NCBI GenBank assembly: GCA_039621445.1
Contig: CP154954.1
Coordinates: 46,913,847 to 46,977,846 of the forward strand
DNA from: Euglena gracilis
Taxonomy: Eukaryota
Length of the DNA: 64,000 nucleotides
Direction: 5' to 3'
In this document: one piece after another, positions 1 through 42,791 of the stretch
Numbering within the stretch: the stretch's first letter is position 1
How the letters are laid out: each line of letters starts with the position of its first letter
The notes under the pieces: generated by a model
What the model was told of the DNA's origin: nothing
Seen by the model: only the letters and a program-made list of their open reading frames with translations
The model's database searches: none
Program-made: the position numbers and the translations under genes

Positions 1-340
1 AAGTAGATTACCAGTCTTCGTTCTGAAAGGGGTGGAAAGTGTTTTGATTTTATCTCAATGGTGAGGTTAGCAATGTGGATTGGCGTGGATTGGGATGGAT
101 TAGTTTGGATTGGGTTTGCATCGGTGATGGGCATCTTTTTTGAATTTATCATTTTCATTTTTTATCATATTCATATTTATCATTATTTATCATTTTTCAT
201 TTTTTTTTATCATATTCATAATTATCATTATTATTGTTTGTTTTTATTACAGTTTTTTGTAGCTTTTGCATTTTTTTTTGTTTTTTGTTGTATGAACTGT
301 ATGAATTGCATTCGCTTTCTCCCAGACTGTGGACCGCATC

Positions 341-3300
341 ATGGCTGCGCCTGTGGAAGAAGTGCAGCCACCTCTACCCCCAGTGCCTCCTTGCCAGGCT
401 TTTCCTCCTGTTCTCTTTGGTGTCAAATTCCATGCCGAAACACGGCAATGTGTTCACCCCCCCCCCCAGAGCTGACCCTGAGCCCCTTGGGTGGTGTATG
501 AAGGGGGTTGTCCATTGAATATCCATTAGTGGGTGGGGTGGGTTGGGCTCCCCCCGCGCCAGGTTTTCTTTTTTCTTTTTCAGAACTTTCAACGGGGATC
601 CTTCAGATGCCTTCAGTACCGAAGGAATTTGTCCTTGCGAGCTGGCATACCCACCGTGTGGCCCTGCCCCCCTGCTGCCCACCAGTTGGAGGGCAGGCAC
701 AACACTTAGGGTATCCCGGTCCACTGGCTGACACACGGCAGGGCACCCCCCCCCTTTCTTTTCCAGGAATTCCTGGCTGGGTGGGCCCCACGGCCGCAAC
801 CAAACCGCAGTGCCCAGTTTTCTGCACGTTCGGGTTCTCCCACGCCGAATTCGCATCAAAGTCCCCCCCCCCCTGATGGTGTCGGAGTGCTGTTTCACAA
901 ACAAAAGCCTGCCCTCGGCCCGCCCCCACTGCCCGCCACCGCCCCGCCCAGCAGCGGCGGCATGCAGATCCGGCTGAAGACCGAGGACTTGACGCAGCTG
1001 CACACCGAAGAACGCGCAGCGGCGGTGGAGGTGGAGATGCGCGTCATCCCCAGCGTTGAAGGTGCTGGCCCATGAGTTCCACTCCGCACTCCCTCTGTCT
1101 GGTTTGAGCAATCTTTGTCCAACAATCCAGTTCAAGGCAAATCCTCCAATTTGACACAGTTTCGATCAAAATTTGCTTTTTCTGATTTTTGTGAACACTC
1201 ATCCAAAATGTTGGGAAAAAATTACCGCCCCTGCCAAGAGCTGGCTCCCCTCTTCTGTTGGAGTCAGGGGGTTTTTTTTTTGTCTTGGACCCTGGGGGGG
1301 TAGGGGGGGTGGGTCTGGCCGAGCCCCCCCGGGGGGGGGTCCCCCCAGGGGGTGGGATATACTTTTCGGCGCCAAAGGCACCGAAAATTTTTGAAAGAGG
1401 TGCCTTTTTTAGCGTTTTTGTTATTTTTTGGCCTTTTCAGGGAAAAGTGGGTTGGGTCCCCCAACCCCCCCCCCCCCGGCCCGGGGGTGGGGGGGTGGGG
1501 GGGGGGCCCCCCCTCCCCCCCGCTCTAAAAAAAAAACCCCTGGGTGGAGTGATCATGGTTGACAAAAGCAAACAGGGCATTTAGCCATTGTGCATGTATT
1601 ATGTGCCCATCACATCCCTCTGTTACGGCTTACACCGAAAGGTGGCTGTCGTTTTCCCTGGGGACAAAGACAGACTACGTGGCGATGCACACGCGGCCCC
1701 TTCTCTCTCAGTGGGCAATCCCCGGCCCGTTGCCTGGCCATTCGCGGAGGGGGCTGGGGCCAGTGCCCCCCCGCCAGCCCCGCCCCCGCCGCCCCCGCCC
1801 CCGCCTGCCGCCCCGGCGCTGTTCAGCGGGCCACCCCCGGACACCCCAGACCAGCAGCAGTGCCACCTTCAGGTGCCAGAGCTCTCCAAATTCCCTTTGC
1901 ACTGTTCAGGGAATCAACGTAATGGAAATTATCACTTGCGTTGGGAGGGGTTGGTGAGTCGCCCAGCCAGTTGGTCTGACGGGTGGGGGTTTCTGGTGAT
2001 AAAACCACTCATATGTGTACAACTCATATGTGCATGTGGATGTCGTTGTTCAACAGCAAAACAAACAAAACTATTTAATTGGCTTACAAAGCCTTCCAAA
2101 ACAAGCTCAAATGGTGCCAAAGCCTTCAAAAAAACTCCAAATGAAGAGAAAAATAGGTAAAGCTTGTAGATGGCGTCGGGGCAGAGGTTTTTGTGTTTTT
2201 GGGGGTCGGGATCCACCTACCCACCCCTGGGGGAGGTGTCGCGGGGGGGGGGGGAGGCTTGGGGGACCACTTTTGGGGTCAATTTCGGGGTCCAAAGGTT
2301 CTTCGGTGTACGGTGCCCACTTTGCCCAACCCCCGACCCGGGGTTGCAGGGTATTCAGACTGATCTGCATGGTGTGCGCAGTTACAACTCTGCACCCAAA
2401 ATCTGAATTTCGAAATTGAAATCTTCCCAAATTTGCTTTTTCTGAAGTATTATTTTCCTGTCATTTTTACGTTCCACGATCTTTGTTCAGGCTTTAAAAG
2501 ATGAACGCCTGTGCAAGCTTTTCCATTGATTTGTTTGTTTGCCCCTGATCTATCAGTCGAATATTTGACAACAATGGTAATAAATTTTGCCTTTTGCACA
2601 AGGGGTGTTGCAAAAAATTCTTGTTTTCATTTGCGGGATTTCATTTTTCAGACCAGCCTGATGAAAAACATGAAAGTCACATTGGATCCAGGCTTTTGCT
2701 TAAGGACCCCCGGGTACTGGCTAGCCAATCGGCTAGACACTGGAAAAAATGGACTAGCTAGACCCCCCTCCCCCCCCGGGGGGGGGTCCGGGGGTCCCCC
2801 CAACTGGAATTTTTTTCCTCCAGTTTTTTTCCTTTTTTTTCCTCCAGCGCTGCGCGCCGAGGTGGAAATGAGGTTTTTAATAGGTTTTTGGCTGATTTTG
2901 TTCCAAAAATTCCCAAAAAAAGTTTCTGGTGCTTCGCGCCGGGCACTGGAAAAAATTTTCCACTAGCTAGCCCTGCCAGCAGACCCCCCCGGGGGGGGTC
3001 TGCTAGAAATCCCACTAGCCAGATTTGGACTAGCTGCAGTCCAGCCCCCCCCCCCCCCCCGGGGGCACTGCAATCCCTTAAGCAAAAGCCTGATTGGATC
3101 GTTGTGAGTTTGGTGAGTAAATTGCTCGAAAATGTGCTCATGTTTGTGGCAATGGTGACCAATCATCAGTTGTTGTTTGCCATAATTACTTGATTGAGAG
3201 CGTCCTATTGCGTGTCTTTTTTGTCCCTTTTCACACATTCCAGCCTGGAAGGGATGTTAAACCTGTTGGCTCAGGGCTGGCTGACGCGGCTTTACCAGTC

Positions 3301-6300
3301 AAATCGGCGTGCCATTTTGGTTCCATCGTATGCCTTTTGTGACTCAGGATCAGATCCTGCAGCTGCAGCAGTTTGCTGTTTCGTTCAAGTGCCATCGCCG
3401 TCAATCCCCCCAATGTCGAACAATTTATATTTATATGTTTATATCTCCACAGAAAATATTCCACACTAGGTGGGCTAACATTTGGCAAGACAATGCGCGC
3501 CAAGTTCAGCATCCTGACATCTGAGACCCAAGCCCACTACAATCGCTCAGTCACTTAACCCCCCCTGAATAGAAGCCCCTGGGGGCAACTATTCGGAACG
3601 TTGGTTGAAAACCGAGGGGGGGCTTCTATTCGGGGGGGGGGGGGGCACTATTCAGAAAAGTGGTCGAAAACCAGTGGGTTCGAGAATTATCGAAGAAATT
3701 TCTTCGTGGGTCTACATGCCCTACCTTCTAAACCATGTCAAATCTGCTGCAAATGTTACTCTTGTGAATGCATGATCATTAAACGTAAAATCATCCAACC
3801 CTCATTTAGAGGTATTGCAAAAACTGGAGCCCTGCACTAGACATTTACCCCCACCCCGCACACCCCCACCCCCCCACACCCCCCCCCACACCCCCCCACA
3901 CTTGACCAGTGTAGGCTCCAGTTTTTGCAATATATGCTCATTTTACCAAATGCTGAAGAAGCCAAAGCCAAAGCATTTGCCGTCTCAATTCACAGACAAC
4001 CCACGGGGAGCGGTCTACTATTCGGGGGGGGGGGGCACTATTCGGAACGTTGGTTGAAAACTGAGGGAGGGGGACTATTCGGGGGGAGGGGGCGTCTATT
4101 CAGGGGGGGTAGTCACTGGCAGACCCCCAGGGTTTGTGACTGTTTCTTTCAGAATGATTGAGTGGTTGTTGGCCCAGACCTCCTCCCCCCTTGGGGGTGG
4201 TCTGCAAAAAAAATGAAAGTAAATACCCAGTGCTGAAGGCGACAAAAAACCCTTTTTTGCCATTTGTTTTTTTGTTTTTTTACGTTTGTGGTCAATTCCC
4301 CCTTGGGATTCAGAGTGGCCAACCCCCCCCCCCCACCAGGTAGTGGGTGGTGACTGACTGGTTTTTGGAAGTGTGGAACTGACCCTAGGGCGGTAAAAAT
4401 TGCATGGAACCCGTGACAAAATGCTGGTGGTCAACCGTTTGATCGCCCCAGCCAACCGTCCAGCCAAACCCACCGTTGGCCCCCGAACGTTCCGCTCACC
4501 CCTGCGCGGTGGCGTTTGCCCCCGTTCCATGTCGGCGCGGAGGAGAAGTCACTGGAGGAGCTGGCGAAGGGGGCGGAGGACCTCCAGCGGCTTCAGCAGC
4601 TCGAGCAGCTCCAGCAGGAGGAGTCCTCGGCGAGGACCGCCCAGGGCGTGCCTGCCGCGGAGGCCCCGACCCACCGAGCAGCGCAGGGCGGGCCCGCTGG
4701 CTGTGTGACGGCCCGCGAGGGGTTGATCCAGCCGCAGCGATTTGGTCCTCTCAAATAACATTTTGCTGTCCACATTTTTGTTTTAATTTGATCTATTTAA
4801 TTTGATTCAATTTAATTGATCGGGTCGCAGCATTGGCATCGGCATTAGTATTAACGTACCGCATTGCTGCGTGTTTCTGGTTTTTTTTGCCTTCCTTGTT
4901 TTTGTTTTGGCCCGCGGCAATGCGTTTGCAGCCATCGCGCGGAAGGGTCTGTGCGACGGTTCCCGGCGATGTGCCGGCTTCCCTCCATTCCTTGGCGTCC
5001 GGCGCCGCCCTGCGGTGGTCCCAGTGTGCCCTGCACTTCCGCTTCCGCTGCGGCCCCTTCCTGCAGCAAGGTGCCGATGGGCAGTGGCGCTGCCTCCCCC
5101 GCTTCGCCTGCCAGTACTCCTCCCCGCTGGTGTGCAGGGGCCCCCTTCCCGCTGAGCTGTTGGAGCCCCACTCCTGTGATGACGTCCCAAACATCCCACG
5201 CACATTCCTTTCCCAAATGGCGACCACATCTATTCCCCAATAGAAAGCATTTTTAGGTCGTTTGAAGTAGGACGAGAAGTTGATGCCCTTGTGGTGCCTT
5301 TTCACAGCTAGTTGTTGTTGTTGTTTTTAAACCGACAGTTACAAAAGAAAATGGCAGCTGACCACCCCTGTGGGCCAGGATCTGAAGTCAAGCTGTTTGG
5401 GGACGAAACAAGCCGGCCGCCACTCCCTTGTGTGATGTATGCCAACCCATCATCCATCCTCAGCTCTACCACCCCGTCACAGATACCAGCGGTGGCCGCC
5501 CCCAGCGTGGAGGTTCCCAGCAGCATGCCTCCCGCGGAGCCTCAGCCTGCCCAACGCGGGCGCAGTGCCTCTGTGCAGTCCCTCCTTTGGCCGTTTGCAA
5601 CAGAATCTGCCGCGTCAGGCTGAAAGGCTTGCAGCAGTTTTTACGCTGCAACTGAAAAGCTGAGTGCCTCGGTTGGCTGGCTTTGGCATGGCATGGTGAT
5701 GAATGGGAGGGGCTGGGCCCAGCTCCAGTAGCTCCAGCAGCAGCTCCAGCAGCCGACACAGCGACAGCACGCGCGCCCCAACTCCGGAGCCGGAGAATGC
5801 AAACGTCAACTGGCACGATATTAACGTTGGGCCTGCAGGCTATGGTCGGAGGCTGCTGCGGAAAGGGTGTGCTGAGTTTAAAGATTCCCTGCAGGGGGAT
5901 CCTGCATAATCCTGCATAGGTCTGTCTTTATAAATTCCTAAAACAGCAAAAGAATACCCAACCATAATGGGTTTCAGAAGGACAGGAAAAACAATTTTCT
6001 GTTTCGCTTGATTGGTATTCTGTTAGGTGAGGAAATTGTTTTTCAATCATCCCACTTTTTCTTGAAAATTTAATCAAAGAATTTTGAAGTTGAATTTTGG
6101 TACATCTCAAACCAATTTGTGTCTTTGGTATTGAGTGTCAGAGAATTTTTTGGCACCATTTTCACAAAATATTCATCATCCTCATCAGCATTTTCCTGTT
6201 TTGAATTATTTTCACAATAATCCTTCAGGGTCGATACATTTTCCACCTATTAAAGTTGGCTGAAATGCATTTTGTCAAGCTCCATCTTGTCTGGCAGCGC

Positions 6301-9300
6301 ATTTTTGAAGTGCCGCTGAAAAGAATGGGCTGATGGTGTTTTTTTTTTGATTCACAAAAGGCGACTTGCAAACTCTGAAAAAAAAAGATGTTTACAACCG
6401 CCAAAATCAAGCCCTCACTGGGGCCTAAAACTGACCCCTCCCCCCGGGGGGGGGGGTGCCTGCTTTGCCAGAAGCGAAGTTAGTGGCGGCAATAAACAGG
6501 CAAGAAGCCTCAGTGCAGCCTAAGGGGGCTTTGGGCAGGCACCACATTGCACAAGGTGCCCCCCTGGGCTTGACAGAAACGGATCTTTGGCTTTCACATA
6601 TGCAAAAATGGCCAGAAATTGCAAAATGGATCGGATTTGGGCTGGCCAGGGCAAATTTTGGGTCAAAAAACCCGTGTTTTTTTTACACCCCTGGCAGTTT
6701 TTTGGGGCTTTTTTGGAGTTTCAATGTTTTGATCCCCGGTTCGACTCCCAGTCCCGGGGGACCCCCATGGGGATTACCCAGCAGCCTTATTCCAGCCAGC
6801 CCAAATTTTCCAGCTTCTGACCTGGACCCCCCCTCCCCCTCCCCTCATTAAGCAATGCCCCGGTCTCAGGCCCAACCCCCATACATTCTGGGAGCATAAT
6901 TGGGAAAACGGTTGCGTCACAGACCTCCATTTAGTATGTATCACCAAAAATTTTTTTTTGCGTATCACATGTATCACAGCCTAAAAATTAATGTATCACA
7001 TATGTATCACCAAAAATTTTTTAATGTATCACATATGTATCACCAAACAAATTTCAATGTATCACACATGTATCACCATTTTTTTATAGATTTTTTTCCG
7101 TTTTTACATCAAAATGTTTTTTCCTTTTTCCGCTTTTCATCCTTGTTTCCTTGCCTCTCTGCAGACAAATGGAACGTTTTTCTTGTGATTATGCTTTGGA
7201 GACATACCATTGCTTAACACCTGTCCCACCCCACCCCCGGGGGTGACTGGCTGGTTTTTTTCAGAGTGACAAGACCCCCCAGGGATAGGCCCGGAAATGA
7301 AAAAGTGGCTGGCCTGGCGCCGAAGGCGCCGGATTTTTTTTATATTTTTTTCAGACTTTTTGGCAATATTGCCTTGCCAACATAAGCGCATCCAACGGTG
7401 GCCTATCGCCCCCTCCTCCGGGGGGGGGGGGGAGGTAAAGTGACTGCTGATTTTTTGGGAAAAAGTGATTGACTGGTAGGATGGCAGAGATTGGTTGCGT
7501 TTTGAAGCATCCCGTGGCATGTAGTGTGCTATTTGCCATCAATTTCGTCAGAATCCAAAAGTGATCCGGAAGTGATGGGGATGGGTCAGAAAAGGAATTC
7601 TCTTGCAATGCCAACAAAAGTGTACATTTTCCGTAACATCAAATCGCGCAGAGAGGGAAAGTATCATCTTGCTGCAAAGGCCATGTTGAATCGACCACAA
7701 ACAGATCTGAGCCAATCCCTTATTCAGCTTCCGTCCGCTTTGGTACCGCAAGCAAAGATGTTGTTTAAAACTGTTTTGTGGATGGTGAAGCATGGAATCG
7801 CCAACCGAAAGCTTCGTTCATTGTTAGACTTGCAGCATTTGAATTGGGCGGTGTATGATTTGTGTCATGTGTCCAGCTACACACCTGTGGCCGTGAAGAA
7901 GCAGCCATGGGAACCTGAGTTCCTCAAGCTCGGGTGAGCGACGTCTTATGTTTGTCTGTTAATTTTTCATCTTACAAATTTGTGCTTCACAACTTTTTTT
8001 TATGTTTCACCAAGGAAAATTTGTGTATCACATGTGTATCACCAAAGTTTTTTTTTTAATGTATCACATATGTATCACCAAATTTTTTTTAGTGTATCAC
8101 ATATGTATCACCAAAAAAGAATTAATGTATCACAGATACGTTGTGATACGCACTAAATGGCGGTCTGTTGCGTCATCTTTTGCTTCCTTGTGGTTTTGTG
8201 TGGCGTTTGTAATTTTGGGAACTTTGAAAATTCTCAAAAAAACTTGTTGGAAAGGCTCTAAGGTTGAACCTGCCTCTGGGGTAGGGGTTTTCTTAAGCCG
8301 TAGGGGGTCTTGCTTCCTGGGGGGGTCCAGTCAGCCATCACTTTTTTTTCAAGCCAGCACCTCCCAGCCAGGCTGTGGACCCCCCCCCCAAAGGTTCGCT
8401 GAAACAAAGTTTGGGCCAGCCCAGCAAAGCCAGCCTGGCAGAAAATTTTTGAAGACAGCGGTCAAAAAATGGCCAAAAATGGCATTTTGGGGTGCTTTTT
8501 GGGGTTTCACTGCTGAAAAATGCCAACCCAGCTGTATTTCGGCTTTTTCGGGTGTTTTTGGGTACCCACCGGGTCCAGCTCCCAGCCGGCCGGACCCACC
8601 CCCCACTCACCACTCACCTGACAATTGGGCCAGAAGCGAAGTTAGCGCCGGCCATGTACAGAAAAGAAGCCTGAGTGCAACTAAGGGAGTCCAGCCAGCG
8701 CCTTTTTCCAGCCGGCCCGCGGAACCCCCCCCCTCCGGGATCCTTAAGAAAACCCCTGCTTGGGGTAAGCCAGAGTCACAAAAGCAGGTTGGTTGTAGTT
8801 ACTCAAGGAACATGGTTCTCTTTTTCTCTCTCTCTTTTGTTTCAGGTCTCAGGTTTTCCGAAGGCTTGGAGACAAGGCCAGTTCACCTGCAGCACAGCGT
8901 ACTCAAAGTCGAAGCCGCAGCAAGAGCCGCAGTAGAAGCAAGAGCCGAAGCAAGAGCCGCAGCCGCAGCAAAGGCAGCCACTCCACGCGCAGCCGGTGTG
9001 TACTCCCCCGAAATATAGAACCAGTTCTAACCCTCGGAGGGGTGTTCCAAATTTGGTCAAGAATTTTGTCGATCCGAAGGTTACCATTTTCCCCTCACCA
9101 TGTGCAATAATTTAGACCATTTTTGGAGAGTATTTTTGGTTGCTTTGGTTGGAATTGGTGGACGAAATTTATCAGGCAGCATTTATTCAAAAAAAATTGT
9201 CTCTGAAATTCCGAACCTCAAATTTTTTGGTGCTTTTTTATTCTCCGTTTCAAAACCCCCATTTCAGGGAGTGAAGTTCAAATATTTGGTCGCTAAATCA

Positions 9301-12300
9301 AGGACCCCAGGAGGGTTCTAAACCCCCCCCCCCCACTTACTAACCCCCCCCACTTACTAACCCCCCCCCCCCACTTACTAACCCCCCCCTCGGGCCGACC
9401 AACCAAACCGGGACTTATAAACCCCCCCCTTCGGGGCAGGAAAATGAAAGCCGCCGGGGCCGATTTTTTTTGGCCTCAAACCACCCAAAAACTGATTTTT
9501 GGCCCTTTTTTTGAGATCGACCATCATCAAAAATGCCATTTTTGACCAAATTTACCAAAAATTGCCATTTTGGGGGGGTTTCGGGGTCATTTTTGGGGTT
9601 CGGATTTTCACCAACAATTCCGGGACTTATAAACCCCCCCCACTTACTAACCCCCCCCTTCGGCAGACCAACCAAACCGGATCCTACTAACCCCGGGGGT
9701 TTATAAGTGGGGGGTTTATATTTGGGAGGGGGGGTTCAATCTGTCTTTGTTCCTTGCACACAGGCATAATGATTTTTGGGCAATTTTGAGGCAATTTTTC
9801 ATTTTTTTAAAGGTTTTTCAGGATTTTTTTTAAAGGCATTTTGAATTTTTAAAAAATTTTAAGGCGTCTATTTTCCATGCGACATCAAAGAGCTATCCGG
9901 GCATCGAACCAACGTTGGTCCAGGCTGAAAATGAAAAGTCCAAAAACACATTTATTGGGTGGATGCACAATGTTCAAGGGATGCCAAAAACCATCTTTTT
10001 TCCCGGAGTTGGCTTGTTCTTGATTTTGTGACTTCTTTTTTCCAAAAAAAAATGCAAGGTTTTCAAGGTTTTTAAGGCTTTTAAGCGCCTTAAGAAATTA
10101 TTAGGCCTGCTTGCACCCCCCCCCCCGCGCACCATCCACAAAATGGTGCGAAATGATGAATTAAGGAAATACCGTCTCCACTTTTCTGCCCTTCCCCCCC
10201 TTTTTTCAAGCCACAATTTGTGTGGGTGCACAGCTTTAAATATCAGCAAACAGCATTTTGCAGGCAGTCCAGGCCCCATTGCTGCCACAGAGGCAGCCGC
10301 AGCGCCAGCCGCAGCAACAGCCGCCGCAAGGGCCCCAAGCAGGGATTTTTTTTTAAAAGTTTGGGAGGAGGGGTCCATTGGACCCCCCCCCCCAGGGGGG
10401 GGTGGGATGTCACGGGAGGTAGGTTCGTGGGAGGTAGGTGCCGCGGCCGGCCGGCCGTCAACCAACCAAAACAGGGGTTTGGTTGGGCCGCGGCCGACCG
10501 CGACCCAACCATGGCCATATTTTGCTGTCAGAATTCTGATTTGGTTGGGCCCCAATCAAATTGCAAAAGGTTATCACAAAACAAAAAGATTTTATGACGT
10601 TATTTGAAGAAATAGGGTTAGGGTTAAGCTTCTCATGCAAACAGTTCAAACCTTCCCACTCAACTTCGGTATATTGGCCTCTACAGGGTACTCAGCGAAC
10701 CCAAAGAGCCACCCAATTAGGGTTAAAAACATGGGGGGACCTGAGCGGTGCGGAAGGCGCCGAGCGAGGGTCCCCCCATGTGTATTAACCCTAGTTGGGC
10801 GGCCTTCTGGGTTCGCTTAGTACCCTGTAGGAGCCAATTTAACCGCCATTGTGCGATGCAGTTCGCTGGGTCTGTTGTGGTTGGGTGGCCGCGGTCCAAC
10901 CAAACCGAATTTCATGATTTCAGCATCGGAAATGGTTGGCCCGCAGCCCAACCAAGATTTTTTTGGGTTGGGCCGCGGCCGGCTGCGGTCCAACCAAAGC
11001 AGCAAAATGGTTGAGCGGCGCGACCCTACCTCCTACGAACCTACCTCCCCTTCCCCACCACCCCCCAGGGGAGTTCCTCCAAAGGGCTTGGTGGGTTTTG
11101 GCCACTTTTTGGCCTTTTTTGGCGCGAAGCGAATTTTTTTTGACCCCAGAATTGGCCCCCCAAAAGTGAGTCCCCGGACCCCTCCCCCCAGGGGGGGGGT
11201 AGGGGTACCTTCTGGGTTGGTATGGGGGACCTCCCCCCGGTCTTAAAACAGTCCCTGGCCCCCAAGGCCGAGGGGGCCAGGGAGAAGCGGTCCAGCAGCC
11301 CCAGCCAGGCGAGCCGCAGCCCGAAGAAGGCTCGCAGGTGTGCTTTTTTCTGGATAACTGCTTGTTTTTGAGATTTTGTTAAGTTGGCATAGGTTCATGG
11401 TGCTGGCAAATACCTTCTGCGATGCATTGGAGTAAGACAGGCATCTATTGTGGTTTTGCTGTCATGAACCATCACTGGTTCTGCGGTATACTATTTTTTT
11501 GTTGGGACCCATTTTCATCTGCAGTCCAAGGAAGAAATTACTGCAAATGATTCTGGGTGAAAATATCATGGGAACAATATTTTGGGAGTATTTTGATTGT
11601 GAATTTTTTTGGGTAAAATGAATTTTTCATCCTGTGCCAAATCTTTTTCAGACCACATTGCAGCCAGAAAACCCTTTTCCCCAAAGTGTGGTGAGCAAAC
11701 TGCTCAAAAATGAGTCACTCGCAAATATCATACACCGATGATGGCTGCTTTTGATGACTGGCCTGGTATGGCATTTGAGGATTTCATTCGCCTTGGCTCA
11801 AGGAGGTGTTGAAAGGTGCAGAGGGAAGAAAGGCGGCGCCCTGCCGGGGGGGGGGGGGTTCTTTGGCAGGCACTCCAGGGCCGGGCGGGGGGGGGTAGGG
11901 CCTGTTGCCAAAAGTGCCTGGGCACTCGGGCAAGGCACTTCTGGCCAGAAACGCCCATTTTTGGGCACTTTTTGGCACATGACCAGCAGGGGGGGATGGT
12001 GCCTGCCTGCCCAGGCATTCCAGGGCACTTGGTCAAATTCAGCCTGGTGAGGGTGTTCCCTGGATTTAGGATTGTAGTCGAAGTGAGGCTTTTTTCCTTG
12101 GACTTGAAATTGGGTGGGGGTCAAATATTATGGGAGGAAGTCACATCGAAAACTTTGATTTTCACACCCAAATCTATTTTTCTGGCGCTTGTTTTTTGTG
12201 CAAGTTGGAAATTGGAAAGTTGTTTGTTAGGGGAGAGGGGAGCCGACATACCTCCCCTCTCCCCCTCTTTGGCACCCTGCCTGCCCCAGGGCGGACTCCC

Positions 12301-15300
12301 AGGAGCGGGAGGCGGCCAAGCGGAAAGCCGCCCCGGGGCCCCACAAGGACCCGGTGCCCCGGAAGCTGTCCACCGCGACCCGCCGCGAGGCGCCGGCCCA
12401 CCCGCCGCCCGGCTGGGAGCCCCCGCCGCCCCCGGTGGGGCCCCCGCCGGGGCGGCCCCCCACCAAGGCCGCAGCCCAGCGGGGAAGGGAGAGGCAGGGC
12501 GACGGAAAGGAGCGGTCCCACCCCGCCCGGGCATCTCCTTGCCGTGTGGGGGAAGCTTGCACCCCCCGCAGATTGGCCAAAGGAGGCCGGGTCAGAGCGG
12601 TGGCGGCGGAAAAGTTTTCAAACACTGTTTTGCGTGTTTTCCCCTCAAAATAGTCTTTTTGGAGGATTCCTTTTTTTCCTCGATTTCTTCTTGTTTGGGA
12701 AAAGACCACATGAAGAGCTTTTGCGTTCTCTTGTGTTCCCTCTTAATGCAGAGTTTTGGATCCAGGCTTCTTTTAAGGACCCCCCCCCCCCTTGGGTGGT
12801 GTGTGCAGGCAGGGGGGGGTATTTTTTTTAATAATCCCAGGGGTGTACCTTGTATGCAGGGGTGCCTGACCATAGCAGGCACCGCTGGTCCAGACTGGGG
12901 TTGACCCAGGTAAAGTCGTTTTCGGGCTTACCCACTGCCCACCCCAAACCTGACCCTTCGGGGGATCAAAGTGCCTGCTTGGACCTGAAATATCCACCTA
13001 ATTTCATGGGTTTCCTATTTTTGATGGCAAGGGATGATGATGTGGGTGCGAAGGTGGATGCTAAGCGAAGAATTGTTTGGGAGATGTCAAGTGGATGCAC
13101 GGATCCGATGCACCAAGAGGGCGGAAGCCTCCGCCTCCTCCTCCGCCCCCCGAGGAAGATTGGGGACAGACTTCAGCATTTGAAACGGAGGCCAAGGATA
13201 CCTTTTGAAAACAGACTTCTTTTTAGCACCCCCCCCCCCCAGGTCACCAATTGGAAAAAATTTTCTGCTTTCTGCCAAAAGCATGAAACGTGTTCCAACG
13301 GTGCTTGGTTTGAGATATCCACAATGTCCTCCCACCAAATCAAGGTTCAAACGGTTCCGCAACACCGATTTTTTGAAAATATCACAAAAAAGGCAATTTT
13401 GCTGGAATCCCCCCCAAGGTCCCGATGTGGGGGATGGCAGAGTGGGTGCATGGAGGGGTTTCCCTCTATTTTCGTTGCACAGCCCCAATTTTTTTTGAAC
13501 TACAAATTGCCCCCCCCAAAGTGGGTGCTCCCCCTGAGAGTCCCCCTCTAAGGGGTGGGGTGGATGGGTCCGTACCCCCCAGGTCCTAAAAAACCTCTGG
13601 TGCGAGGGGTGAAGTTTTTTGGCAGGGTGTTTCCTATTTGCATGAATAGTGGTACAGAGCTTTGACATGGAAGGGGTTGTGTTTTGGAGCAGGTGGAACA
13701 TGAAAACAATTCGAATCATGTTTTTTAGGGCGGGGCCTAGCTTGGACCATGTATGTGCTGGCACCATAGCAAAACGAGCAGATTTGGTCAAAGCCTGACA
13801 CAATAGGCACAACTGTCATTTTGGCCATCCTGATGGGTTTTGCGGCGTTTTCTTTTTTTGACGTTTGGGCATCTCCAGCGGCAGAAGCCTGTTGACCGAC
13901 GACGTGCAACCCGACGCTGCCGCGAAGCACCGGAGGCCCAGCCATCGTCACGAGGAGCCGGCGGCTTCCCGCGGAAAGTGGGATGGCCCGGTGTCCTTTG
14001 CGGAGGAGCCCGCTGAGTGGGATGACCCTCCACCCCGGGAACGTGCGCCAAGGCCAGCACTCCACCCTGCTGTGTTCTTGAGACCACTGAATGAGCGTTA
14101 GTTAGTGAATAGATTTGTGTGCCTATCATTAATTAGAAGGATATATTATTTATTTCGGGGTCTGTTGTTGCCCTCCCCCTTGGTGAGAAAGTGGGACTGC
14201 GTGTGCTTGTTTCTGACATTTCTCTTCGTCACCGCCCACATTGCGGATATCTCCCAAAGAATGAACCCTCTGCTGCATACTGGTGAAGGCAAACAAAAAT
14301 GGCAGAAAAATCACCAGGTACATCAAAAAAGGTACATAGAAAAATTGATGAATTGAGCCTGTATGAATTTCAAAAATTATGGTCATTGCACAAAAAGTTA
14401 CAAAAAATATTGGGCTGGAGAAATTGGCGAAAGAAATTTTGCAGTCATTTTTTGAGGTTGATAATCTAGCCCAAGATCCCCCCAACCACTGGTTTTTGGC
14501 AGAAATATCGCCCGTTTTCAATTTCCATGTCTGGGAATTTTGTATTTTCAGTGTTCAGCTCTATCCTCCTCAGTCCGCATGTATATCGGCACCCTGAAAA
14601 GGGGAGGAAAAAAACAGGAAGGTGTGGAGGGCATTGCTAAGATTGGAAATTCAAACCTTCACCAACATCCTACCCCTTGAGTGTATTCCCCCTAAATAAT
14701 AATGATTTGAACACCGAAGTCAGAGCCCAGGGGGGGGGGTTGGACCCCCAGGGATGATAGCAGCGAACAGCACACAAGAATCATGTCTTTGGAGTTGGGT
14801 CTGGGCTGCACAGGCCTCACACAATGCGCGTTGCAAGGGACCCTTTGGCACCACACCGGCAACCCTCCGTTCCGGCCATCACACGGGGAGTGCTGCCCGC
14901 AGCGGCCACGGCAGAGACAAGAGGCGGACCCTCCGCGCCGCCATGCCGACCACCGCAGCCAATGGGCCGAGGATCCCGACGAGGCTTTGTTTTCGGGCGG
15001 CCGCCGGTGGCCCTGGCAGGCCGGGGGGGGGTCCAAAGCGCCCACCGTGTGAGGCACGCCACCCCAAGTGGTGGATGGGTGTCCCCCCAAGGGGGGGTCA
15101 AGCAAAGCCTGCCGGAGAGGCATACCCCGTCCCCACCACGGGGGGCCAGTACGACCGCTACCCAGACCCCTCCCCCCCGCGCCGGGGCCCCCTCTCCCCC
15201 CTGCGGAGGCCCACCGGGCCGCCCCCCGCCCCCCCTCCGTCGTCGCGGAGGGATGCCGGGATGGCGCATGATCAGGGCTGAATGAGAACCCCAGAAACCT

Positions 15301-18300
15301 CATGGGTTTTGGTGAGTGGGGGGGGGGGGTAGGTAGGGGTCGCCCCCCCTCAAACAGGCTTTCTCATACAGCCCTGCGCCCGACCCCTACTCCTGGTCGC
15401 CTCCCCACCAGCCTGCCCGCAGAACCTCAACCCATGACCCATACATGAGGCGTGCTGTGCATGCTCATTCTACTGGGAGGGGCAAATGGATATTTTTGTG
15501 TATTTCTGTTTGCCTTTTTCGATTTTGGCAAAATGTGGGGGGGGGTTGCGATTTTTCGCTTCCCCCCACCGATTTCCTAATTTTTCCTGGGATTTTTTTT
15601 TGTTTTGGAAAGATTGCATATTTCGGTCCAATCTTTTCTCTGAAGGATTTTCCATGCAACTTACGTTTGTTCTGTTTCCACTATGCCCCCTCTTGTGGAC
15701 AGCCTGACAAAAAGCCATTGGTGAAGACACACCGGCTGCAGGCTTCTTTTTAAGACCCCCCCCCCCCCGGGTGTCCCCCCCACCCACCCAGCCTGGCGCA
15801 GGACCCCCTGGACCCCCTGGCAGGACAGGGACTGAGGGCATCCCCAAAAAATTTTCGGGGCTTCGCACTGAAACCCTACCTGGGCCTCCGCCTGGGACTT
15901 CCTCCCTGGGGGGAGGTCCCTGGACCCCCCCCCCCAGGGGGGTCTTCTGACTTAAAAAAAAAGCCTGATGCGCCGGTGCCTGGCCCGGGGTCAAGCCATT
16001 CACCCACCCACACACCCACCCACCCACCCACCAGACTGTAAGGCATGCCCCAACCCCCCCCAACCCAGGGAGTGGATCAAAGTGCCGGAAAAATTTTGGC
16101 CCTTGCATTTTCGGGCTTTTTTTTAAAAAAAATCGGCCAAAATATGTGAAAAACTGGGGGGGGAAGATATGGAATTTTTTGGTTCCGGGGGGGGGGGCGG
16201 GTCGGATCTGGGTCCCAGGAACTCCTGGGGGTGCCCACTAAGGAAATAGTGACCAGTCGCCAGGAAGGAAGCCCCCAGAGGCTTGAGGACCAGGGGAGGC
16301 TCGGGTTTTTGGGAACAATTTTGGGTCAAAGCTTTTTTCGGTTTGTTCTTGAAATATTTAAAAACCCCCAGGACAGGTGCTGGGTGTACAGGTTGCCATC
16401 TGGGCTTTTACGTACCTTGACTTCGCAGAGCGTAGAGTTGTTGTTTTTTTTGACGGTGGGGGGTTATGAGGAGCCAGAAAACAAAAGATAACTGTTGGAA
16501 TGAGATAAATGCAATTTCCAGCATTTTTTTGCAGAAAAAAGGTGATAAGTGTCAACAGCACTGAAATCACATTTTTTTTCTCTCTGCTGTTGAAAAAAAA
16601 GGATGATTAGCCTTTTCAAAGAAAGTGGATTCTTATGTGCTCCCAAAAAAATGAATGAGATTGGCGTGACAAAAATGCAGGAAATGACATGACCCTATCT
16701 TTTAAGGGTCTCCCCTCCCATGAAAATAAAAACCCGTATCAGAGATTTTTTAAAAGTTTGGTTATCTGGGGCAGGGGTCCGCCCCCCCCCACGAGGGGTG
16801 GAGCGGGCCCAGTCCAGGCTTGCGCTTAGTCGGGGGCCTCCCCCACGGGGGGGGGGGGGGTGCTAGGGGAAGGCACCCCCTGAAACCCTACCCCCCCCCC
16901 AGGGGGGGTAGGGTTTCAGGGGGTGCCTGCCCCTAGCAGGCACCCCCTCCGACCCCGGCGCCTTCGGCGCCGGGGGCCCGGAAACGGCCATTTTCAATGA
17001 AAATTTTCTGGGTCCGGCCCGAACCCCTATCCCCCCCCGGGGGGGGTGTGCCTGCTAGGGGCAGGCACCCTATAGCACCCACCCCCCCCCCCGGTTGTTA
17101 AGCACAAGCACGGCCCAGTCGAGTGAAAATTAAGTTGGGGCAGCCTGCCACAGCCCAGGGGTCTGGCTGGCCGGCCGGAAAAAGGGGCTAGCTGGACCCC
17201 CCCCCCCTTTGAGTGAGCCAGCCGGCTGCCGGGCTGGACCTGGCTGGAACCCAAAAGCCAGCAAAAGAACACAAATCCAGCCGTGTTGGTTTTTTTTTTG
17301 GTCACATTGACCGTTTCCCCCTCTTTTCCTCTTCTCGGTGGACCTTAAAAATTCCGTGACCCAGTTCCCCCAACGGAAGGAGAGGGTGGCTGATGCATCC
17401 GCAGAGAGATTGACGTCTTACCCAGTGGATTATTTATCTGCACAGGGAGTATGAGAGACAGTTGCCGCAACCACAACGAGAGCGCCATGGCCGGAGTTTG
17501 GGAGGTGTGTCGCCATGTCAAGAACACAGTTCAAAATAAAAAGTGGAAAAGTGGAAAATGGAAAAAGTAGAAAAGTGGAAAAGTAAAAAAGTGGAAAAAG
17601 TGGACAAATACAAAGTGGAGCCCCAGTTTGTATTAGTGTCCAGCGGATCCAAATATAAAGCATGGAAAAGCCCTCCTGCTATGAATTCTCTTGAACCACA
17701 TTGTATTGTCACTTTGCTTTGCGGTAGCAAAATAATGGAAAATGGAAGGCAAAAAGGGTGCCAGACCAGAGGGGTTGCTGCCAGTGCTGTGTGAGAAGCT
17801 TTGCACACCCACCCCAGCAAGTCCTTTTTTATCCAGCTCCCAATCCAGGACCAAAGATCAGAAAGAATCAAAGAATTTGTGAGAACTTTGAAGTGTCTCG
17901 AACCGCAAGAAAGAAGCCCACGTCTTTATGGTGTATTTTCTGTCCATGCCAGACGCTGGGGTTCCCCTCTCAGGCGAGCATAGTCCTCCACACGTCAGCC
18001 GCCGGAGCCCCACTCCCCCACCGAAACGGGCCTATGCCCCGCCCCCGCCGCCGGACGAGTACGCCGACTACCGGCGGCCGGAGCGGGAACGGCGGCGGGA
18101 GCGCCGCGACCTGGACAGCGAGCAGTACTGGGAGCAGCGGAGGGAGGAGGGCCGGGGGGAGCAGCGGGACGGCCGGGGCCGGCAGCCCGACTGGCGATGG
18201 GGTCCGGAGCCATGGAATGGCCGGCCCTATGCCCAGGCAGCAACTTCTGAGCTCCGACGTGTGAATTCTTGGTCTCGGCGTTGGGAATCTCTGTGGCTTA

Positions 18301-21300
18301 TTTCATTCTTCTGGTTGGCAGTTTTATTGGATTTATTGGCACAACAATTTTTTTATAAATAAGTGTGCTGTGATTTTCAAGTGCCTGAAAATTCAAGCAA
18401 AGAAATAATGCATGCTGGGAACTGTAATGTACGTCCCCCCCCTGTGCTTGACATGGCTGGTCCATGACACCGTACCCCCCCCCCCTGTGTCAACCCCCGT
18501 GTCAATTTTTTTTCTTGTACCCAAAATGCCATCTTCTTTATGGTAAACCCCCCAAATATAAAGTCGGCTTTATATTTGGACAGGAGTTCAAGACCCTCAG
18601 GGGGACTTTATTTTCAGGGGGGCTTTTTTGGATGGGGGAATCCAATTTTTTAGGTGGCCTTTATGACCTTTGGCGGCCTTCAAATGTGGCCAAATACCAA
18701 TTTTTATGCAAATTTTCGTTGTTCACCGCTTATTTTACTATGTGCTATTATTGTGCTATCCTATGTGCAATTATTATCCAAAATGGAGTATTTCTGGAGA
18801 AAAAGTTTTGTATCCGCCCAATTTTTTTTCTATTTTTCCTGCATGGCACCGTCGTCTGGTTCCATATGGGGGGGCTTAATATTTGGGCAGCAAAACCAAA
18901 CATCCTGGGGGGCTTCATATTCGTTGATATTTGGGGGGGCTTTATATTTGGGGGTTTACAGGGATGGCACGGCGTGTCCATCGTCCCCCCCCCCCCCTGT
19001 GTCAACTGCACTTTCCCCGTAAAGGGGGAGAATGTAGCATTCTCCCCCCCAGGGCCCGACCCCAAGTTGCCTTAGCACCTACCCACTCAGGGAGGCCCGC
19101 CTCTTCCCCCTGTGCGGTTGACCGACAGGAGGGGGATGGGGGAGTTTGGCACCAGGGCCTGAGGTTCAAGAGGAAAATTTGCACCCACCCCGAGTCGCAA
19201 GGGGGGAATTTTTTGCAGTTTTTGTGAGTTGCATTTCTTGCAGTATTGTTTTTATTGAGATTTTATTCATTTTTATTGACAAATTATTTTTTTTTTGAAT
19301 GCTTCTTTGCAGCACTTCTCTGAGAGAACACTGCACATGACAAATTTTGCGCATCTTTTGCAGTTTTTGCAGTTTATTCTGGAAGTGAGAATCTTTTTGG
19401 CAGCATTTTGCTAATTCTGAAGTAATTTTGATTGCATGTGGTTTTTGTTGGTGTTTTGTGCAGTTTTTTTTGCATTTGCAATTTTTGGGGTTGCCCTTGT
19501 GCGTATTATGCACCCTGCCGAGCCCAGCCCCTCCCCCAAGCTGCAGTGCTGTGGGCATGCGACCCCATGCCACAAGGCGCCCAATAAAAGAGCTTGTTTG
19601 ACTGACCCATGAGGAGGTCTGGAGAGCTTGGGTTGAGGTTCCAGGATCTTTTTTTTAAAAAAAAAACAAAAAAAATACAAATTTTGTTTATTCAAATTTT
19701 TTTTAAAAAAATCAAAATCAGCAAAAAAAATTCTGGGCAATGAAGGGAAGGGGTTTTTGGGAGGTTTGGTTTTTTTTGACAAACCCAAGGTTTGGTTTTT
19801 TTTTTTCAACATTGAATTGACCCAGCCGCTGAGGAGTTTGCCATTTTCCAGCCCATTTTGCTTGTTTGTCACTGTTTTCTTTTTTAAAACAAGAAAAAAT
19901 GCGCCCACAAGGTGGTGAAGACAGTTTCAGTTTACAGTTGTTCGTGTTTTTCATGTCAAAACCAACCGACCAGCCAGCAAGCCAACTCTCAGAATGCGTG
20001 GCCCACCTGCCATTTTGAAGGGATTTGCCCTACCAGATAATTTACCACAACTCCGCTTCAGGCAGTTTTGTCAAGTGCCTGAGGAAATTTTGGTCTTTTG
20101 TCCAGGTTCCTTTGTGTGCAGATGGGTGGGTGGGTGGGTGTACCGCCTCCTCTAATCCCCACAAATCAAGGGGCATTTTGTCACATCCGTCCCTTTCTTG
20201 AGCATTTGTTCTGGGTGACATCCAAATGCAAGTGTGAAAGAGAGCGCAAAAAAAAATCCTCTCCTGTTTTTGTGTTCTTCTGTTTAAAAGAGGATGTTTG
20301 TGGTGCCTGAAGTTGATGAATCTGCAGACAATGGCCAGGATTATGCCAGTGCTCAGGTGCCCAGAGAGTTTTTTTTTTTGGCCAACCTTTACCCGGGGAG
20401 GGTGCCTTGTACAATGGGGTGCCTGCCCGTAGTAGGCACCCCCCCCCCCCCTACTTGCACTAAGGTTTCTTGATTGTTCATGGCCAGTGTTAAATTCACT
20501 GGCCCAATTTGCTGTGTGGTGTTTGCTGGTGGTGAACCCCCCCCCCCCGGGACCAGGCAAAACTCCCTTGAAAATAGCCATTTTTGTGCCCCTGGCACCT
20601 TCAGCGCTGGGGGTGTTCATTGCACTCCACCCCAAAACCCTGCCCTCCCCCCCGGGGGGGGGGGTCGAAAGTGCCCAGCGTGAACCCAAGGTAAGTCACC
20701 TCCACAACAGACAAAAAGGGGCCAAGCACCCCCAGGGGCGCACTTCCTTGAAAAGAACACTGCCCCACCTTCCCGGGTGTCAGGGACGGGACTGCCCCTC
20801 CCCCCTCTTTTGATACCTTGCAAGGGGGAACACAAACGTGTTTTTTTGTGTTTTCGATTTTTGCAAAAAAAATTTGTGGTTTTTTCCCCAGCGATTTCCT
20901 GTTTTTTTTTGCTGGCGATTTTTGCTGAGAAATTTTTATCCCTTGGGGAAAATTCCACCTTTGGCCTGATTTTCCCCTGATACGAAGGTTTTTCGCCCAA
21001 ATCTTGTTGCCGGATGAAAAACATTCTTTTAAAACTTTTCTCAGTCCTCTTTCTCAGAAAAGTGTACATCCGGAGGAGCTCCTGAAGGAATTTGCATGCA
21101 GATTGCTTTTTTTGTGCTTTTGTTGGGGTTTTTTTTTGCATTCTTGAGGGTCCACATTGTCCCCCCCCCCCGCCGTTGTCCCCCCGTTGTCCCCCCCCGG
21201 CGTTTGTTGGGGGTTTTGTCTATTTGCATTGGCATTGCTGGGATCCAGATTGGGCCTCTACAAGGCGGAGCGCCAGTGGGCGCCGTTCCCAAGGATGGGA

Positions 21301-22464: not shown

Positions 22465-25400
22465 CGGGACACCCCGGGCTCCGCACTTTACCCTTGTGAG
22501 GCCATGCTTTTCTCGCCGACGGTGCTGTGTGATTGCTAGCTGCGCTTGGTTAGGGTACCCGGTTAGTTCCTTTTTTTGGCCGGAGTTGGCTGACTCTTAA
22601 ATTGCCCTTCGACAACCCGGAATTGAGGAAGTGAGTTTCAAACGCAGGAGAACCAAAAGGACAAGTCAATGTCAAAAAAATATTCAGAAGTAGACGAGCC
22701 AGACGAATTTCACTTGACAAGTCAATTATCAATTTCAAAATCGGCTTCAATGAACAATGAAGTGGGGATGAAGCTTGAATTTTTCGGTCGACGCGAACTA
22801 CCTGGAGCAGCTGTCGCCGTGGCAGCCGGAGGACCTGGAGGTGCAGACGACATGTGGCGAACCGTGGCCGCCCCCCGATCCCACCGTCAGAAATTTCCCA
22901 GCAGAAAATCCAACCGAGTGACGGCCACGGCCTGTGGACCACAGTGGCGAGAAAGACCAGAAGAAAGAAGGAACCCCCAGCGCAGCAGAAACGCCTGGGC
23001 ATTGGAGCCCAATCAAGCAAGATGGGACAAAAGCAGACCAGAGGATTCCAAAGACATGTTCCACAACGGCGCCCAGTCGCCAGAACACAATTTGAACAGA
23101 AGTGGAGAAGATGGAATCAAGGCCAAGGTGGAGGCCACGTTGGCCAATTCCAAAAGAAATTACCTTCAGGAAGGGGCAGAAGAGGTCTGCCAAATCCCCC
23201 AAACTTTCTAAAACAACTACCCATCCAAAGGGAAGGGGGGGGAGGCACAGCAACCCCCCAAGCTTTCAAGCGGAGCTGGAGACCAACGTCAAGCTCAGGT
23301 GAGATCATAGCCAAGGAGGCCAGAGTTCGAATCATTTGCTTTTGCACGGCCATGGAGGTCATTATCTTCATGGACATGGCAGCCATTATCTTCAGGACCA
23401 AGATGGCCAGAACTCACAGGGCCATGGGAACCAAAGGGGTGTTCCATAACTGGCCCCCCAGAAGCAAAGCTGCCAACCTTATCATATCAATCAATTCCAG
23501 CAGCCCCAGGAAGATGCCCCAGACAGGGAAAAGGATGACAAGGGATGATTAATTCTTTTTTCCCATGGAAGGGGAAATCAAAGGGGGCAACTTGAAGGGC
23601 CCCTCTATGGTATGTAAGCAGACAACCGGAATGAAAAGATGGAGGACCAGAGAGTCTGTGAGAGAGGGGGTGTGTGCATGAACACCCCCATCAATTACAT
23701 TCTTTTCAAACCCTGGGAAATGAGGGTTGTGAAATGTCCCAAAGCCCCAACCCATATCCCAGAAAATTAATTGATCAAGGGAATAAATTCATTGGAGGAA
23801 AAGTGGGGGGACACCCCCTTGCACCAGAGACTGCAAAAAAGTCCAAAATGGCGGCTGAAAAATGCCCCCCTCCCCAGCCACCTGCCAACTCATAAAAGAT
23901 AGCATTCACCCCCCCCCCCTTGGGTCAAACCCCCAATATTATCCACACATCCAAAAAAACAGAACCAACCTGGACCTGAAACAGGCCGAAACAATCCTGT
24001 CGGACTACAAAACAATGGGTCCAGAAAGAGGGTTCAGGATTCAGGAACCCAACATCTAATTCCCTGATTCCTGATATCAAAGCCAGAAGGGGAACAAACG
24101 AAGTGGAGGTTCATAAGCGACTGCAGGGAAATAAACCAAACTTCTCCCGTGAAAGATTTTCAAAGTAGATCACATTCAAAACATTTTCCCAGTTTTGCAT
24201 AAAGGCCACTGGGCGGCAAAAATCGACTTAAAAGGCGCATATTTTCACCTTCCAGTGAACCCAGCCCCAAAACCCTTTCTAAAGCATCAGGTGGGGGGCA
24301 AACCTGGGAATTCCAGGCAGGCTGTTTTGGCCGAAGTGTGATGCAACAAATTTTTATGTCAGTCATGAAGACATTCGAAAAACGTCGGAGGAAAAATGGA
24401 CTCCAGGTTTTATTTACCTGGACGACATTTTATTGGTTGCACCAACCCAAAATAAATTGCAAAAACACTTGAGCAGGGTGGTCAGTGACCTAATCGATTC
24501 GGGGTTCAAAATAAATGTCAAAAAGTCAACCTTGAAGCCCACACAGGTTGTAAGCCACTTGGGCTTCCAGTTAAATTTCCAAGAGGGAAAATGCAAATTG
24601 CCCCCCGAAAAGTGAAAACAATAGAAAAGGAGCTTAAAAAAACAGCGAAAAAAGATTTCATGTCGAAAAGGCAGTTGGCTGCCAGGCCAAATCAGGTGCA
24701 ACCTCATGGCCCTGCACCTTTTATTTAAGGGCTTTCACAGATCCCCTGACAACATTTTGGGTCTAAAAGTCTGCAGCCGCATGGGACTCAAAGCATTCCA
24801 TTTCACAGAACATAAAAGTCCATTTGATGGAAACATAAAATCTGCTAGACACCTGGAGGGAGACCTTTCCCCCAAAGTGCAACAAGGGATTTACACTGCG
24901 ACAGGAGCACCCATTCCTGGAGGGGGGGGGGCTGGACGTTCATGTCCCGGAGTTTGGAGAGAGCTCCATTTTTCATGTCAATATAAAAGAATTACGTGCC
25001 ATCAGCACAGTGAAAAGTCTAAGCAGGCCAGGGGAAACGGTGGACAATCAGGTGATTTATTATTTCCTGACAAAGGGGGGGGGGCAGAAAAGGCCCTTTC
25101 AACAGCCGTCTACGGCCATTTTTCAAATGGTGCAAGGAAATTCTTTAAATCTACAAGTGAAATGGGTTCCTTCAGAGAAATGCTTAGCAGACCCCATAAG
25201 CAGGTGGCAATAAGACAGGGGGGATCACTCACTCCCAGCTCTTTCAGTGGCTAAGGCTGCATTTCAAAGACTTCATAAATTTGGAAACAGATTTATTTGC
25301 CTCCCCAGGCAACAAAAAACTGACAAATTTTGTAGCCAGATGGCCCCACTGAGATGCCACAGCAGTGGAAGCTCTCCAATGCCCACTGACAACATTGGGG

Positions 25401-37500: not shown

Positions 37501-37656
37501 CAACCTTTTGCCACCATGGCAGCTGGTCCTGAAGCCTCTGAAACAGAGGCACTCCCAGAAAGTGCTCCTCTGTCAGCAGCAGCACCTCGGTGATCTGTTC
37601 CAGAGATCTCAAGCTTGCAGCTTCCCACAGCGTGCAGATGTCTTGGCTTCTGCCCC

Positions 37657-42581: not shown

Positions 42582-42791
42582 CAGGGGCTTTTTAAGATCG
42601 GGGGGGGGGGTCCCCCCACCCCCTCCCTGGGGGGGGGGGTCCCGGGTGACCCACTCAAAAATCGCGAAAAATTCCAATAGCACCTCTTTCAAAAAATTTC
42701 GGTGCCGAAAAGTATATCCCACTCCCCCCTGGGGGGCTTGGCCGGACCCACTCCCCCCCCCCGGGGGTCCGCGACTAAAAAAAAGCCCCTG
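42582..42791. mobile_element. hAT-like MITE
   Basis: CAGGGGCTTTTT...AAAAAGCCCCTG; TSD CTCCCACC/CTCCTACC. Confidence 0.8.

Follow-up and report, generated by a model that had tools for sequence, protein, structure and literature searches.

Nonconventional introns of euglenids are removed by a splicing code of the form N3-CDG...CH'G-N5-6|R, which was proven by knock-ins and tolerates one additional nucleotide in the 3' spacer (Nomura et al., 2025; PMC12501133). In the portion of that paper available here, introns with repeats at their junctions were excluded as 'slidable', an origin from elements like MITEs (miniature inverted-repeat transposable elements) is suggested only, the origin is called unclear, and neither 'duplication' nor 'hAT' is mentioned. 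The MITE hypothesis had been put forward when no euglenid transposon was known (Milanowski et al., 2014; PMC3935182), and a recently gained intron in gapC of E. agilis was described as having eight-nucleotide direct repeats, for which break repair was favored (Milanowski et al., 2016; PMC4770533). A review locates terminal inverted repeats (TIRs) to positions +4 to +6 and -8 to -6 and mentions 'often repetitions of TSD', where TSD stands for target-site duplication (PMC11282704). In the excerpts available from these sources, the MITE origin, the TSD-like junction repeats, and the 3- and 5-nt spacers (N3-CAG...CTG-N5-6) are all published before this work. The subject here is a 64,000-nucleotide stretch of the Euglena gracilis genome (GenBank assembly GCA_039621445.1, contig CP154954.1, positions 46,913,847 to 46,977,846 of the forward strand; hereafter the window, with positions counted from its first letter). 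It holds a gene on the + strand and, on the - strand, a gene for a polypyrimidine-tract-binding (PTB) protein, both with nonconventional introns, together with free CAG...CTG elements flanked by 8-bp TSDs. The two intron spacers, 3 and 5 nt, add up to the length of these duplications.

The introns of the window agree with those of the published code in their non-GT-AG borders, in a CAG at +4 to +6 and a CTG at -8 to -6, in the pairing of their ends, in the purine that starts the downstream exon (9 of the 10 rule-fitting introns), and in the tolerance of a 6-nt 3' spacer, as found in the intron at 10337-11263. Splicing itself is identical, and what is added here is that the spacer sum equals the TSD length of free elements that reside in the same window and have the same termini as the introns. 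With the MITE-origin hypothesis, as far as the available parts of its sources state it (Milanowski et al., 2014, 2016; PMC11282704), the window shares inverted ends, TSD-like junction repeats, and the precedent of a recent intron with 8-nt repeats; the additions are concrete free copies, a test of the 8-bp register, and the argument that 3 + 5 = 8. A literature search covering sources other than subscription journals and supplements found no link between the 3+5 spacers and an 8-bp TSD; the supplements of two papers (Fig. S3 and the datasets of Nomura et al.; Table S3 of Milanowski et al., 2016) may contain repeat-length distributions relevant to this relation. In introner elements of Micromonas, Aureococcus, and dinoflagellates, a transposon and one TSD are likewise removed from the transcript, such that an exonic insertion is harmless (PMC11282704, in part). 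However, in the cases quoted there, introners carry or co-opt GT/AG sites, depend on the spliceosome, and have 3-5-bp TSDs, whereas the elements of the window follow a stem-and-ruler code without GT-AG and have an 8-bp TSD. The intron borders found here, such as TG..TC and GA..CC, are outside the GT/GC-AG type of introners. The idea is an extension of a published hypothesis and no new kind of system.

Free elements were sought among all CAG...CTG pairs 80-3000 nt apart with an inverted match of at least 10 of the 12 terminal nucleotides (205 pairs). The earlier note on this DNA, made from the sequence alone, had named free elements with 8-bp TSDs at 2689, 6920, and 45458, and all three were borne out with exact duplicates. 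None of the elements is assigned a strand. The MITE at 2689-3092 (404 bp) has a 17-nt perfect TIR (CAGGCTTTTGCTTAAGG) and the TSD ATTGGATC. The element at 6920-8167 (1248 bp, 3' end at 8167), which has the TIR CAGACC(T/G)CCATTTAGT and the TSD TTGCGTCA, is located between exon pieces of the + strand gene, and the MITE at 45458-45740 (283 bp; TIR CAGGCTTCTTTTTAAG; TSD GAGGGGAA) is nested within the PTB intron 45269-46734. Four others were absent from the earlier list. One at 41579-42173 (595 bp) has the TIR (T/C)AGGGCAGAACGGGAA with TAG/CAG ends and an exact 8-bp TSD (CCTGTGGG). The remaining three have flanks identical at seven of eight positions: a MITE at 1265-1542 (278 bp; ends CAGGGG(G)TTTTTTTTT), a MITE-like element at 9761-10109 (349 bp; flanks CTTGCACA/CTTGCACC) nested within the GT-AG intron 8995-10289, and a MITE at 42582-42791 (210 bp; TIR CAGGGGCTTTTT, 12/12; flanks CTCCCACC/CTCCTACC). 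These elements have the features of MITEs, namely TIRs, a fixed 8-bp TSD (four exact, three 7/8), sizes of 210-1248 bp, and multiple copies. Their flank repeats stop at 8 nt with no further extension, and the ends of seven free elements pair (duplex z = -3.0 to -8.0). No Pfam family was matched within the elements among the scanned open reading frames (ORFs); of the 253 stop-to-stop ORFs in the window with 100 aa or more, the scan covered the longest 150.

The specificity of these duplications was assessed with a scan of all 64 terminal trinucleotides under a low-complexity filter, with eight shifted registers as the baseline; an unbiased scan for TIRs flanked by maximal direct repeats, run at a TIR match of at least 9/12, gave too much noise and was replaced by this test. 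After filtering, 6 of 157 inverted-repeat pairs in the CAG class had flanking 8-mers with at least 7/8 identity, compared with 0.5 in shifted registers. Pooling all 64 trinucleotides gave 38 such pairs out of 13163, where the control had 40.6, and the apparent GGG and CCC matches are homopolymer runs. CAG pairs with at most one mismatch numbered 3, 1, 0, 6, 1, 0, and 1 for registers of 5 to 11 nt, respectively. The flank-repeat excess in the window is confined to CAG...CTG termini and to the 8-nt register.

The copies are also prominent in sequencing libraries. The bin of the MITE 2689-3092 has a pile-up of very many DNA and RNA contigs, and in the bins 2669-3335, 6671-7337, and 9339-10005 the RNA-like contig depth is tens to hundreds of times the exon depth. 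MITE sequences are thus abundant in RNA-like libraries, with bin depths summed over copies. A search of metagenome contigs for the exact 17-nt TIR returned 71 loci with one match each and an inverted partner in none; given the missing partners, these loci were rejected as elements and regarded as chance matches.

Eleven non-GT-AG introns in the window are supported by RNA or by the protein P0004 (UniRef; Euglena gracilis PTB1/2, 561 aa). For the + strand gene, transcript data over 1-20000 comprised the contig sets X1 and X4, the DNA-like contig set X20, and the raw RNA-seq run X21. For the PTB gene, a 94-aa frame at 45187-45468 (- strand) matched seven PTB proteins, P0004 among them. P0004 has 100% identity with the - strand over seven blocks (43946-49188), which marks the window as nuclear DNA of E. 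gracilis or of a nearly identical source, and every donor/acceptor pair that reproduces P0004 was enumerated for each gap between protein blocks. A CAG lies 3 nt inside the 5' cut and a CTG 5-6 nt inside the 3' cut in 10 of the 11 introns. The earlier note had claimed a uniform 3+5 cut; this is the geometry of nine introns, whereas the intron at 10337-11263 is cut 3+6 (927 = 918 + 9) and that at 4674-5020 is off the rule. In all ten rule-fitting introns the ends pair, with duplex z between -1.7 and -5.7. Weaker stems (z of -0.1, 0.7, and -2.2) are found in three of the four GT-AG introns compared.

The removal of an element together with one duplicate is best supported at two introns. The first, at 10337-11263 (+ strand, 927 nt), corresponds to the joint 10332->11260, which was recovered from X1, X4, and X21 (6 reads) and from none of the X20 contigs. 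This joint skips 927 nt and can slide by 7; a strict 3-nt 5' spacer places the intron at 10337-11263, followed by A. The intron consists of the element 10340-11257 (CAGGGATTTT...AGTCCCTG, 918 nt) with AAG added 5' of it and GCCCCC 3' of it (9 nt). Its duplicates are GCCCCAAG at 10332-10339 and GCCCCCAAG, i.e., GCCCC(C)AAG, at 11258-11266, the latter with one extra C. A 3' spacer of 6 nt with A as the next base agrees with the N5-6|R tolerance already published. In the spliced mRNA a single GCCCCAAG is left, and the RS-rich frame (...RRKGPK|AEGAREKR...) is intact. The second, at 44947-45199 (- strand, 253 nt), interrupts the fourth RRM of the PTB gene and consists of the element 44952-45196 (245 nt) plus 8 nt, with sense duplicates GATCCAAC/GATCCTAC. 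All 12 placements that reproduce P0004 remove 253 nt, one of them being the 3+5 placement, and the site has no indel across seven orthologues. At both introns, excision leaves one copy of the duplicate and an open frame colinear with orthologues. The interpretation in the earlier note is supported in part: the removal of an element plus one duplicate holds for these best cases.

These features suggest a mechanism of intron gain. In it, the nuclear DNA of E. gracilis carries a population of non-autonomous class II transposons (MITEs) with CAG/CTG inverted ends and 8-bp TSDs. An element would insert into an exon in either orientation with an 8-bp duplication, and its inverted ends would pair within the transcript. 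Nonconventional splicing would then cut the transcript 3 nt ahead of the CAG and 5 (sometimes 6) nt past the CTG, such that the element and one duplicate are excised. The ligated exons would regain the pre-insertion sequence because 3 + 5 equals the length of the duplication, with the upstream copy contributing its first five bases and the downstream copy its last three to the rebuilt target. With time, the duplicate halves that lie inside the intron would drift, and old introns would lose the repeat. As a whole, this transposon-derived model is considered probable. A more specific idea, that the 3- and 5-nt spacers serve as a ruler set to the 8-bp duplication made by a single dominant class of CAG...CTG transposons, is plausible but is held as somewhat doubtful.

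Three other introns of the + strand gene (392-916, 5573-5720, and 15270-15381) show the 3+5 cut with a partial duplicate or none. Seven joints are present in RNA runs and in 0 X20 contigs, with 3-9 reads each in X21 (among the joints listed): the GT-AG joints 5128->5482, 8994->10290, and 17502->17972 and the non-GT-AG joints 391->917, 4673->5021, 5572->5721, and 10332->11260, the latter four on the + strand. The joint 391->917, which has no slide and is found in X1, X4, and X21 and not in X20, defines an intron at 392-916 (525 nt, cut 3+5), whose CAGGCTTTT...CAAAAGCCTG ends correspond to those of the free element at 2689. The joint 5572->5721, also without slide, defines an intron at 5573-5720 (148 nt, cut 3+5). 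The intron at 15270-15381 (112 nt, + strand) is cut 3+5 (GAT-CAGGGCTG...CAGCCCTG-CGCCC|G), with flanking 8-mers CGCATGAT/CGCCCGAC and an end stem of -27.9 kcal/mol (z = -5.7). One X4 contig begins at 15382, and its 15-nt loose end has 15255-15269 as its single match within the window; this gives the joint 15269->15382. The placement of 392-916, 5573-5720, and 15270-15381 is unambiguous: exactly 3 intron nucleotides precede the CAG, exactly 5 follow the CTG, and the next base is a purine. Of the junctions in the earlier note, 10332->11260 and 15269->15382 are supported by transcript data, whereas the junction at 43686 comes from the protein end and not from RNA. No back-splice joint, which would indicate a circular product, is among the 15 joints listed. 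Protein searches with the exons 12291-12521 and 4417-4671 of this gene returned no match. In addition, a 10-nt direct repeat (GGGCATCTCC) is present at 12529-12538 and 13868-13877, just 3' of an exon end (12522) and before the next coding-looking stretch, respectively.

The coding introns of the PTB gene comprise one GT-AG intron (48509-48592) and five with a 3+5 placement, the lengths of which are fixed by the protein. Besides 44947-45199, the latter are those at 44025-44678 (654 nt; element 44030-44675, CAGACGTTCATTT..., plus 8 nt), 44729-44807 (79 nt; three placements, one of them 3+5; stem z = -4.5), 45269-46734 (1466 nt), and 46979-48002 (1024 nt), all on the - strand. In an alignment of seven PTB proteins, the four junctions within conserved blocks are free of indels, which fits an exact repair. 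No genomic PTB orthologue was found in metagenome contigs among 319 pattern matches. A further nonconventional intron is predicted at 43686-43944 (259 nt, - strand; cut 3+5; TIR CAGAATCC; stem z = -5.1). P0004 terminates with ...RYGHQ, the unspliced frame continues past that point, and splicing here would build the PTB stop codon (CAA T|AA). As a separate observation, the GT-AG intron 48509-48592 (- strand) has a strong terminal stem (z = -3.5) and resembles the 'intermediate' introns of euglenids.

Flanking duplicates were compared across the ten rule-fitting introns; excluded were 4674-5020 and five GT-AG introns, four of them from RNA joints or PTB mapping and one (11338-12289) taken from the reading frame. 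The 8-mers quoted in the earlier note for 10337, 15270, 44947-45199, 44025-44678, and 43686 are as written. Identity is 7/8 at 44947-45199, 6/8 at 10337-11263 (8 with one indel) and at 44025-44678, 5/8 at 15270-15381, 4/8 at 392-916, 3/8 at 46979-48002 and at 45269-46734, 2/8 at 44729-44807, and 1/8 at 5573-5720 and at 43686-43944. Register-8 identity sums to 38/80 (0.475), compared with 27.9 +/- 3.8 when left and right flanks were re-paired among introns by derangement (P = 0.008), and other registers give 0.23-0.38. The excess over re-paired flanks that the earlier note had anticipated is thus present within the window. The graded decay of duplicates that it described is overstated, the cases being two clear, two partial, and six null. 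This distribution is compatible with an age series and does not prove one; under the model above, we infer that the introns arose by transposition and differ in age.

Several observations weigh against this interpretation. Six of the ten rule-fitting introns have no duplicate signal (1-4 of 8), and the five introns outside the list of the earlier note sum to 13/40, which equals the baseline, such that the flank excess rests on four introns. Among these four, the flanks of 44025-44678 (CCCCCACC/CCAACACC) lie in low-complexity proline (CCN) codons, where similarity is cheap. The intron at 4674-5020 (+ strand, 347 nt; joint 4673->5021, slide 2) is outside the 3+5 rule, with its paired CAG 10 nt inside the 5' cut and its CTG 8 nt inside the 3' cut. 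The intron elements at 392-916, 5573-5720, and 44947-45199 have no further copy in the window, and none of the 150 scanned ORFs has a transposase domain. As for the transcripts, X1 and X4 are guessed to be RNA, and X21, the sole run recorded as RNA, has 3-9 reads per joint. Finally, a further 658 joints lie beyond the 15 listed, which makes the set of introns given for the + strand gene an incomplete one.

The missing repeats in six of ten introns, together with the three elements lacking another window copy, favor a different explanation, in which double-strand-break repair left the junction repeats as footprints or chance produced them, selection shaped the CAG...CTG stems as splicing signals, and the free elements belong to an unrelated repeat class. 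Break repair was also how Milanowski et al. (2016; PMC4770533, in the part available) read the 8-nt repeats of a new intron. However, the same terminal motifs (CAGGCTTTT...AAAAGCCTG and CAGAC..TTCATTT) are found on free copies with exact 8-bp duplicates, and only CAG termini and register 8 show the excess. An intron element and a free family are also homologous internally: pieces of the element 44030-44675 are 80-87% identical to the free element 6920-8167, with the same kind of terminus (CAGAC..TTCATTT). The element 10340-11257 has subterminal pieces in common with MITEs at 42582 and 15739, and 392-916 and 44947-45199 have only their terminal 9-10 nt in common with free CAGGCTT... elements. 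This explanation is regarded as unlikely.

The kinship of introns and free copies could also be read in the opposite direction, with nonconventional introns excised as RNA circles and spreading, and the free copies descending from them. Circular intron RNAs have been reported, as cited in the review (PMC11282704, in part), and many repeat-family contigs are present in RNA-like runs. However, copies outside exons have exact 8-bp duplications and long perfect TIRs, as fits DNA transposition of the cut-and-paste type, young copies are nested within introns (45458-45740 and 9761-10109), and the DNA-like run X20 has no joined (empty) form. Such an origin from introns is considered very improbable, and descent of the introns from transposons remains the preferred reading.

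It is less clear which transposon superfamily is involved. The classic combination of hAT elements is an 8-bp TSD with short TIRs starting (C/T)AG, and their target consensus is nTnnnnAn. The elements of the window share with hAT MITEs the 8-bp TSD and short TIRs starting with CAG or TAG, but differ in having no linked transposase. In the nine duplicates compared by eye, where the target consensus is not evident, T is found at position 2 in six and A at position 7 in two. The best guess, judged from TSD length and CAG termini, is that they are hAT-like. TSDs of 8 bp are also made by P, Mutator-like, and Zisupton elements, and the intron-generating MITEs may instead be mobilized by one of these, by Merlin, or by an undescribed transposase with an 8-bp TSD. 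This alternative has a substantial, though less than even, chance of being correct. It is favored by the lack of a hAT transposase among the scanned ORFs of the window and by the literature, in which a search outside subscription journals and supplements found no report of hAT in Euglena. Within the same scope, the only superfamily with 8-bp TSDs found for E. gracilis was Merlin, of which two such families are reported (PMC8101967, in the part available). However, Merlin TIRs start with GG in all families described in that part of PMC8101967, whereas the elements here, although consistent with the 8-9-bp TSD of Merlin, have CAG or TAG immediately next to the duplicate. Such ends with an 8-bp TSD are the classic hAT combination.

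Domain matches among the 150 scanned ORFs were limited to RRM families (PTB gene) and reverse transcriptase. The latter represent retroelement remains between the two genes, with RVT_1 fragments at 24283-24612 (+ strand, E = 8e-8) and 36763-37572 (- strand, E = 2e-5). Another repeat of the window, at 26647-26950 (304 bp), has near-perfect 30-nt inverted ends (one mismatch) that start with AAAACCGACAAG, with the palindromic 8-mer CCTCGAGG on each side; its termini are outside the CAG class.

Taken together, the window offers free copies with the termini of verified introns, a TSD length equal to the spacer sum, and two introns with a visible duplicate. The MITE hypothesis thereby gains a quantitative form, with a prediction open to genome-wide checks. 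If the spacers are indeed a ruler matched to the duplication, exonic insertions in either orientation would be erased scarlessly from mRNA from the first generation, which would explain how such introns reach about 72% of the introns of E. agilis. The 'slidable' introns omitted from genome surveys should then have repeats peaking at 8 nt. If true, Euglena would represent transposon-driven intron gain without spliceosomal signals.

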